From NCBI RefSeq assembly GCF_024223415.1, contig NZ_CP100500.1: a DNA stretch of 64,000 nt. One strand, written 5' to 3'. Below are positions 44,038-44,315 of the stretch, piece after piece. The notes beneath the pieces are model-generated. The model worked only from the letters and a program-made list of their open reading frames with translations, was not told the DNA's origin and did no database searches. The translations under genes and the position numbers were made by a program. The DNA is from Escherichia coli. GTDB taxonomy: Bacteria > Pseudomonadota > Gammaproteobacteria > Enterobacterales > Enterobacteriaceae. Position 1 is the first letter of the stretch; every line of letters starts with the position of its first letter.

Positions 44038-44247
44038 TTAGTTAGAGTTAATTAGCTTATCAATCTCTGTAAGAGGTAAAGTTGTCACCTCTGCAACGTC
44101 TTCCCGAGACATCCCTTTACTTAGAAAACGCTGGGCGAATTCCTGTCTTACCTTCTGGAGTTCCTCTTGATATCCCTTCTGAAATCCCTTCTCTTCAAAC
44201 CACTGCGCCAACGTCTGCCTGGTTTCTCTCCGTGTCTTTATTTCCAT
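44038..44247 (-). CDS. free-standing small ORF homologous to the C-terminal module of the Rpn-family protein YadD/RpnC
   Basis: 69-aa ORF MEIKTRRETRQTLAQWFEEKGFQKGYQEELQKVRQEFAQRFLSKGMSREDVAEVTTLPLTEIDKLINSN; own SD (AAGGGA, 4 nt before ATG); parallels the C-terminus of the adjacent yadD ORF (...MMTLAQWFEERGRQEERQEFVLRLLNKGMSREDVAEMANLPLAEIDKLIN); the DNA is visibly similar to the yadD 3' end (44316..44480) by eye. Confidence 0.6.
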   Translation of the reverse strand: MEIKTRRETRQTLAQWFEEKGFQKGYQEELQKVRQEFAQRFLSKGMSREDVAEVTTLPLTEIDKLINSN

Positions 44248-44315
44248 AGGTTCCCTTAATTATCTGGTCAGTTAACAATAACAATTATCTGGCTATAACT
44301 GATGATGCAGACAAC

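Follow-up and report, generated by a model that had tools for sequence, protein, structure and literature searches.

RpnS proteins made from internal starts of rpn genes are antitoxins that bind and inhibit the RpnL nucleases, and separate RpnS genes also occur (Zhong et al. 2023, PNAS 120:e2307382120; PMC10400941). The internal start of K-12 rpnC was demonstrated experimentally in that study, and helix 1, with its 4-aa repeats, forms the RpnS dimer interface (PMC10400941). Adding one extra 4-aa repeat to one partner only abolished the inhibition of RpnCL by RpnCS, and RpnCL was blocked solely by an RpnCS of equal repeat number (Fig. 4D; PMC10400941). Among the separate genes, ypaA (rpnESs) sits downstream of rpnE (yfaD), and the YpaA product was detected by SPA tagging (PMC10400941). 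Another, named rpnCSs, is a small gene between rpnC and panC (Fig. 2I) that is found in some E. coli strains but not in K-12, its loss being ascribed to deletion or to fusion to the rpn N-terminal domain (PMC10400941). The clustering of RpnCSs with RpnCS indicates an origin from rpnC (PMC10400941). Our literature search on RpnSs found nothing after Zhong et al. 2023 beyond its commentary. The first-pass annotation of the DNA analysed here had described Rpn proteins as toxic nuclease-like proteins checked by small proteins made from their own C-terminus, which matches the published account.

We analysed a stretch of 64,000 nucleotides from Escherichia coli (contig NZ_CP100500.1 of RefSeq assembly GCF_024223415.1), hereafter the window. 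The part considered here is the panB-panC / rpnC / panD-yadE neighbourhood, in which a free-standing 69-aa ORF, hereafter ORF69, lies between rpnC and panC. The features of the locus are as follows.

43091-43942, plus strand: panC (ORF list).
43947..43977, no strand assigned: hairpin with a 12-bp stem between the convergent panC and ORF69, conserved in K-12 (terminator scan).
44018..44214, minus strand: direct repeat copy B, from ORF69 codon T12 to about 20 nt beyond the stop, 24 + 6 nt longer than copy A (alignments, repeat search).
44038..44247, minus strand: rpnCSs = ORF69, free-standing 69-aa RpnS-type ORF with an ATG start (ORF list; homology to the RpnC tail).
44248..44315, minus strand: 68-bp spacer from the rpnC stop to the ORF69 start (alignments).
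44252..44257, minus strand: Shine-Dalgarno-like AAGGGA, 4 nt 5' of the ORF69 ATG (read from the sequence).
44296..44462, minus strand: direct repeat copy A, which begins at codon T243 of the in-gene tail and runs about 20 nt beyond the stop (alignments, repeat search).
44316..44468, minus strand: in-gene rpnCS, predicted 50-aa internal product with start ATGATG (sequence; the position matches the K-12 MMTLAQ... start).
44316..45188, minus strand: rpnC (yadD), encoding RpnC-L, a 290-aa PD-(D/E)XK Rpn family nuclease (ORF list; NCBIfam TIGR01784, 268.8 bits against a cut-off of 52.1).
44472-44480, minus strand: GGAGGGGAG ahead of the in-gene rpnCS start (read from the sequence).
45462, plus strand: start of panD (ORF list).

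The large gene is annotated as rpnC in strain AR_0085, which, like strain CP53, is 100% identical to the window here, and the 16-aa repeat region of its 290-aa product is the shortest in our sample. The ORF69 protein reads MEIKTRRETRQ, TLAQWFEE, the repeat units KGFQ KGYQ EELQ KVRQ EFAQ RFLS, and then KGMSREDVAEVTTLPLTEIDKLINSN. Its repeats begin at residue 20 (KGFQ), and its N-terminal 11 residues (MEIKTRRETRQ) fall outside clear RpnC homology. The 3' flank of ORF69 has a homologous counterpart in roughly the first 20 nt of the spacer past the rpnC stop; the remainder of the spacer is unique. The hairpin at 43947..43977 is the sole terminator-like site downstream of rpnC and ORF69. The segment from the ORF69 stop to this hairpin (43978-44037) includes 22 nt that are absent from K-12 (L002) and, at about 43990-44008, an imperfect palindrome, ACGTCATGGCGATGACGT.

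ORF69 is one allele of the published rpnCSs, and finding it here is a rediscovery of a gene that was already known. The gene of Zhong et al. has the same locus, the same position downstream of rpnC and before panC, the same orientation and the same homology to RpnCS. Nothing essential differs: the allele described here is 69 aa long, has a 24-aa repeat region and is paired with the 290-aa rpnC, the shortest allele sampled. As a free-standing second RpnS module directly downstream of its own rpn gene, rpnESs/ypaA is comparable; it differs from rpnCSs in its independent origin (RpnESs clusters with RpnE), its other locus and its presence in K-12. The in-gene RpnAS, RpnBS, RpnCS and RpnP2S share with ORF69 a domain made of a long helix 1 with hypervariable 4-aa repeats followed by a small HTH. 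Unlike these in-gene forms, ORF69 has its own gene and no need to co-evolve with the C-terminus of a toxin, carries the extra 11-residue N-terminus, and differs in repeat number from the adjacent toxin. PGAP labels for this same gene vary between hypothetical protein, transposase, RpnC/YadD family protein and pseudogene "missing N-terminus".

The relationship between the two tail copies is evident at both the protein and the DNA level. In a BLASTP comparison, ORF69 matched residues 235-290 of the neighbouring RpnC with 40/64 identical positions (63%), 8 gap positions and an E-value of 1e-21. The segments TLAQWFEE and KGMSREDVAE are each identical between the two tail copies of the window; besides the 8-aa repeat difference, substitutions are found in helix 1 and helix 3. 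At the DNA level, the tails align over 167 nt at 86% identity, interrupted by indels of 24 nt and 6 nt, and the homology runs about 20 nt beyond either stop codon. Comparing the window with itself revealed two direct-repeat families, the first pairing 44046-44157 with 44318-44429 (112 nt, 85%) and the second pairing 44165-44215 with 44413-44463 (51 nt, 80%). Furthermore, the 64-kb window contains the 19-mer GGCGCAGTGGTTTGAAGAG at two places, versus 0.02 occurrences expected by chance. From the letters alone, the first-pass annotation had described near-identical blocks interrupted by indels and a free-standing, RpnS-like duplicate of the RpnC C-terminal module with its own Shine-Dalgarno sequence. 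Both descriptions hold, as the ORF is intact, the homology significant and the AAGGGA motif in place.

Profile and structure searches also connect ORF69 to the Rpn family. The protein matched the C-terminal positions 213-273 (61 positions) of the NCBIfam Rpn family model TIGR01784 with an E-value of 2.8e-8. A Pfam-A scan of the 69-aa protein gave sub-threshold unrelated matches and did not find DUF4351 (PF14261), while close homologues have precomputed weak hits to PF27070 (HTH_Rpn_C). An AF2 model built with 40 homologues, of moderate confidence (mean pLDDT 72.7), has four helices (6-19, 22-43, 48-55 and 59-67), in effect one long first helix with an interruption, followed by two short helices. 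Superposed on RpnA-S (PDB 7th0), the model had a target-normalised TM of 0.83, an rmsd of 0.8 A over 41 alignment columns and a probability of 0.89, with a Foldseek E-value of 2.1 that is not significant. This was the best target-normalised TM and the smallest rmsd among the 50 PDB matches listed. RpnA-S was recovered through fold comparison only: a phmmer search of the PDB did not retrieve it and had as its best match a designed repeat protein with an HTH-like motif. As the fold is small and HTH-like, we consider the superposition supportive, but not decisive, of an RpnS fold for the modelled ORF69.

We next determined how widespread the arrangement is. For this, we queried 5426 complete E. 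coli genomes with the junction at 44205-44330, which comprises the ORF69 start, the spacer and the rpnC stop. The junction was present in 1555 genomes (28.7%), always on the chromosome, and was at least 95% identical in 1553 of these. Genomes without it have the K-12-like one-copy arrangement. The whole 661-bp region spanning both tails was matched at at least 99% identity by 122 complete genomes; in AR_0085 itself, the same query matched one place, so that megablast gave no other close copy as a candidate part of a matching RpnC-like toxin in that genome. A public assembly collection has the exact 69-aa protein in 11,038 indexed blocks, and in 10/10 places shown this protein adjoins a 290-aa RpnC. 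A protein search returned over 60 free-standing variants, whose sources were E. coli, E. marmotae and further Escherichia, with repeat regions of 12-32 aa there and of up to 36 aa in the fetched loci. All fetched two-copy loci have the small ORF downstream of rpnC on the same strand. The first-pass annotation had regarded the arrangement as an unusual variation, and had named its occurrence in K-12 and most strains as what would count against that. K-12 lacks the second copy and most strains lack the junction, yet with a share of 28.7%, thousands of indexed blocks and a published name, it is an ordinary polymorphism.

The arrangement also extends beyond E. coli. In E. marmotae, panD, rpnC, the small ORF and panC follow in the same order, the small protein begins with MDIKTRRETRQ, and the repeats inside rpnC form much longer arrays. 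Across three E. marmotae loci (L016-L018), the in-gene KGIE-type repeat region ranges from 40 to 56 aa and the downstream copy is identical (24 aa), so that here the in-gene copy is the faster-changing one.

Rather than a working gene, ORF69 might be a decaying, non-functional remnant of a partial duplication, relevant only as a substrate for recombination. Three sampled genomes, among them that of the identical strain AR_0085, have it labelled by PGAP as an incomplete pseudogene ("incomplete; missing N-terminus"), the published demonstration of synthesis covers RpnESs/YpaA only (PMC10400941), and our scan found no promoter-like site in the spacer. A frameshift has altered the N-terminus in a few database variants: P0065 and P0073 are a 77-aa form starting MLTDQIIKGTYGNKDTERNQQ, which corresponds to the spacer and N-terminal region in another frame. 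Their altered start implies a 1-nt indel near the start, with the RpnS domain still in frame. In addition, pN/pS over the last 24 codons is higher in the downstream copy than in the in-gene copy (0.48 vs 0.24, from a small sample and confounded by recombination).

Against decay, every two-copy locus sampled has an uninterrupted ORF, across 19 distinct in-gene/downstream pairs, as does E. marmotae, and the length differences among free-standing copies are all in frame. Frameshifts piling up in relatives, which the first-pass annotation had given as a sign that would speak against a gene, are not what the sampled pairs contain. The ATG, the Shine-Dalgarno sequence and the non-duplicated 11-residue N-terminus are essentially invariant, the Shine-Dalgarno sequence being identical in 16/16 alleles with upstream sequence, including E. 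marmotae. The pN/pS of the downstream copy is below 1, which is consistent with purifying selection that would be weaker than on the in-gene copy. Finally, the analogous RpnESs (YpaA) protein is made (PMC10400941). Considering these observations, we think it improbable that ORF69 is a mere remnant and favour a maintained gene.

The term "orphan", which had been applied to ORF69, does not fit, as an intact rpnC with its own internal rpnCS start adjoins it. A candidate for a truly orphaned RpnCSs is found elsewhere: on a Logan contig from SRR27381294 (L027, positions 359-1232), rpnC is split into ORFs of 136 aa and 153 aa while the downstream 65-aa ORF and panC are intact, so that this RpnCSs may lie beside a broken toxin gene. 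At L035 panC is also split, and this case is probably a sequencing-error artefact.

How ORF69 is expressed and where it came from can be proposed from the layout of the locus. Scanning 43850-45450, we found neither a sigma-70 consensus nor a terminator-like site in the 68-bp spacer. On the minus strand, the one promoter-like hit falls within or beyond the 3' end of ORF69 and was discarded as irrelevant to a promoter of its own. Because the spacer lacks both a terminator-like site and a consensus promoter, ORF69 would most likely share a transcript with rpnC/rpnCS and have its translation initiated at a ribosome-binding site of its own. Its predicted expression thus probably depends on read-through from rpnC or on a promoter internal to rpnC. 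As to origin, we suggest that the 3' end of rpnC was duplicated in tandem long ago, after which the duplicated copy would have gained a start codon, a Shine-Dalgarno sequence and the N-terminus MEIKTRRETRQ.

To place these events in order, we compared the window with K-12. In K-12, 73 bp separate panC and rpnC and the RpnC protein has 300 aa, versus 373 bp and 290 aa in the window, and from panC to the rpnC start the window has a net excess of exactly 270 bp. The first-pass annotation had put the K-12 gap at about 70 bp and estimated some 270 extra bp, in good agreement with these measurements. ORF69 aligns gap-free to the tail of K-12 RpnC at 69% identity, and K-12 rpnC ends in the 6-nt-longer downstream-type 3' end (NSN/NLI) that is also present in ORF69. 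According to a further proposal, K-12 YadD would correspond to the N-terminal portion of the window's protein joined to the tail of ORF69. The proposal is right as to length, since residues 1-242 plus 58 aa make 300 and the alignment has no gaps, but not as to sequence, since the two tails differ at the stated identity.

A closer match to K-12 was available in L013, a two-copy metagenomic E. coli contig that served as the comparator for the K-12 breakpoint. K-12 is 100% identical to the L013 in-gene copy up to a tract of about 95 nt that is identical in both L013 copies; beyond this tract, it is 100% identical to the L013 downstream copy and its flank, through panC. This complete identity on either side of the tract identifies K-12 rpnC as the expected product of a single crossover that fuses direct repeats of the L013 type. 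The best explanation of the aligned sequences is that K-12 rpnC is a "fusion" of the kind mentioned by Zhong et al., with a 3' end and flank of the downstream-copy type. On grounds of parsimony, rather than of a rooted phylogeny, the data are likewise best explained if the two-copy state is the older one and the one-copy state of K-12 is derived.

The first-pass annotation had ordered these events differently. It proposed that a module from outside, for example from another rpn paralog, replaced the tail of rpnC, and that the K-12-like original was left behind as an orphan gene. Some of the comparisons above are compatible with this scenario: the lengths fit (242 + 58 = 300 aa), ORF69 aligns without gaps to the K-12 tail (at 69%) but with 8 gap positions to its own neighbour, and the 6-nt-longer 3' end (NSN/NLI) is common to ORF69 and K-12. 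However, a search of complete E. coli genomes for the donor led back to rpnC, as 30/30 listed matches of the in-gene tail fell in alleles of this gene. Since other rpn genes were absent from these 30 listed matches, we rejected an imported module as the source of the in-gene tail. That tail (RGRQ EERQ EFVL...) reads as a shortened version of a repeat type that other rpnC alleles have, RGRQ-EERQ-(EVRQ)n-EFAL, and the repeats of K-12 (KGIE KGIQ QGRQ) are unlike those of ORF69 (KGFQ KGYQ EELQ). Because the junction and the N-terminus are common to 1555 genomes and E. marmotae, where the two-copy layout also occurs, the downstream gene long predates the 290-aa rpnC allele. Moreover, one crossover in an L013-type locus rebuilds K-12 base for base. 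We therefore consider displacement of the original tail by an outside module very improbable, and retain an old duplication at rpnC with later fusion in K-12.

Tail sequences appear to have moved between the two positions in other alleles as well. A free-standing copy carrying the in-gene tail of the window was found on contig L011 (P0120), P0026 is a free-standing copy with the K-12 repeat type, and the free-standing copies P0039, P0045, P0057 and P0074 have the K-12 KVINLI end. Conversely, P0096 is an in-gene tail with downstream-type sequence. Identical 72-nt 3' segments are present at both positions, and repeat number varies independently in the in-gene and downstream copies. The first-pass annotation had offered a snapshot of module shuffling as one possible reading of the locus. 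Tail cassettes do occur at both positions, in a process that is population-wide and had been noted previously. We propose that homologous recombination between the direct repeats would place cassettes at both positions, and that deletion of the interval between the repeats would leave a single fused gene, as in K-12 rpnC. We know of no recombination machinery dedicated to rpnC/rpnCSs.

An analogy may be drawn with pilE/pilS gene conversion: at rpnC too, a variable in-gene module has a homologous copy nearby, with population evidence of exchange between them. Unlike in pilE/pilS, the predicted rpnCSs appears to be an expressed gene, and the exchange is deduced from natural alleles.

In the junction search, up to three places were matched in one genome. 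One contig also has more than two tail copies. On L011 (positions 1-814; ENA ERZ27229452:k115_66508), tandem free-standing ORFs precede panC, first a 59-aa ORF with the in-gene tail of the window (RGRQEERQEFVL...) and then a 69-aa ORF, both with the same spacer and MEIKTRRETRQ start. This contig would be either a three-tail-copy locus or an assembly artefact. A search of complete genomes for three-tail loci with a query built from L011 gave ordinary two-copy loci in 4/4 matches opened.

We next considered which protein ORF69 might act on. By analogy with RpnS, its product would dimerise via helix 1, bind the matching domain of an RpnL nuclease and inhibit it. The repeat region of ORF69 is 24 aa long, versus 16 aa in RpnC-L and the in-gene RpnCS, so the two do not share the repeat number expected of a cognate pair. 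Since their repeat regions differ by 8 aa and a one-repeat change abolishes the published inhibition, ORF69 is probably not the cognate inhibitor of the neighbouring RpnC-L, an argument that extrapolates from one engineered experiment, in which the K-12 allele was given +1 repeat. Unequal repeat-region lengths are the rule in our sample, with 19/19 distinct pairs affected. About one equal-length pair would be expected under random pairing, versus 0/19 seen, a difference that is not significant; we accordingly do not take it as evidence that matching repeat numbers are avoided.

Alternatively, ORF69 could be a true second antitoxin of the resident RpnC-L, adding an extra dose from a separate start despite the repeat mismatch. 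It lies directly downstream of rpnC in the same orientation, the scan found no terminator-like site between them, and RpnS proteins are antitoxins for their own RpnL (PMC10400941). The segments flanking the repeats (TLAQWFEE and KGMSREDVAE) are strongly conserved, and the pairing of the 290-aa with the 69-aa protein was constant in all ten places shown. On the other hand, a single additional 4-aa repeat abolished inhibition in the published experiment (Fig. 4D), whereas here the difference amounts to 8 aa plus the substitutions in helix 1 and helix 3, and equal repeat-region lengths occur in none of the 19 sampled pairs. A second antitoxin for the resident toxin thus seems rather unlikely to us. 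More likely, ORF69 would be expressed as an alternative or reserve version of the tail, available for transfer into the toxin gene by recombination.

Taking the lines of evidence together, we have considerable confidence that ORF69 is rpnCSs, a maintained duplicate RpnS gene that recombines with rpnC and is probably non-cognate to its neighbour. As a discovery, this carries small weight, since Zhong et al. 2023 already describe and name the gene, trace it to rpnC and note that it can be lost by fusion. The main text of Zhong et al. gives no frequency for rpnCSs, no K-12 breakpoint and no comparison of repeat numbers between the copies. What our analysis adds is a frequency of about 29% together with the occurrence in E. 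marmotae, the base-exact crossover in K-12, the repeat mismatch in 19 haplotypes and the uneven annotation by PGAP.

More tentatively, and at odds that we would not put in its favour, rpnC and rpnCSs may form a two-cassette specificity switch, in which the downstream gene is kept as an expressed, non-cognate tail variant. Such a switch would fit both the fused K-12 allele and the free-standing copies that carry in-gene tails. Zhong et al. mention fusions, but a switch was neither proposed nor tested there. If the idea is true, recombination would swap or fuse the cassettes and thereby reset the pairing of toxin and antitoxin, perhaps under phage pressure.
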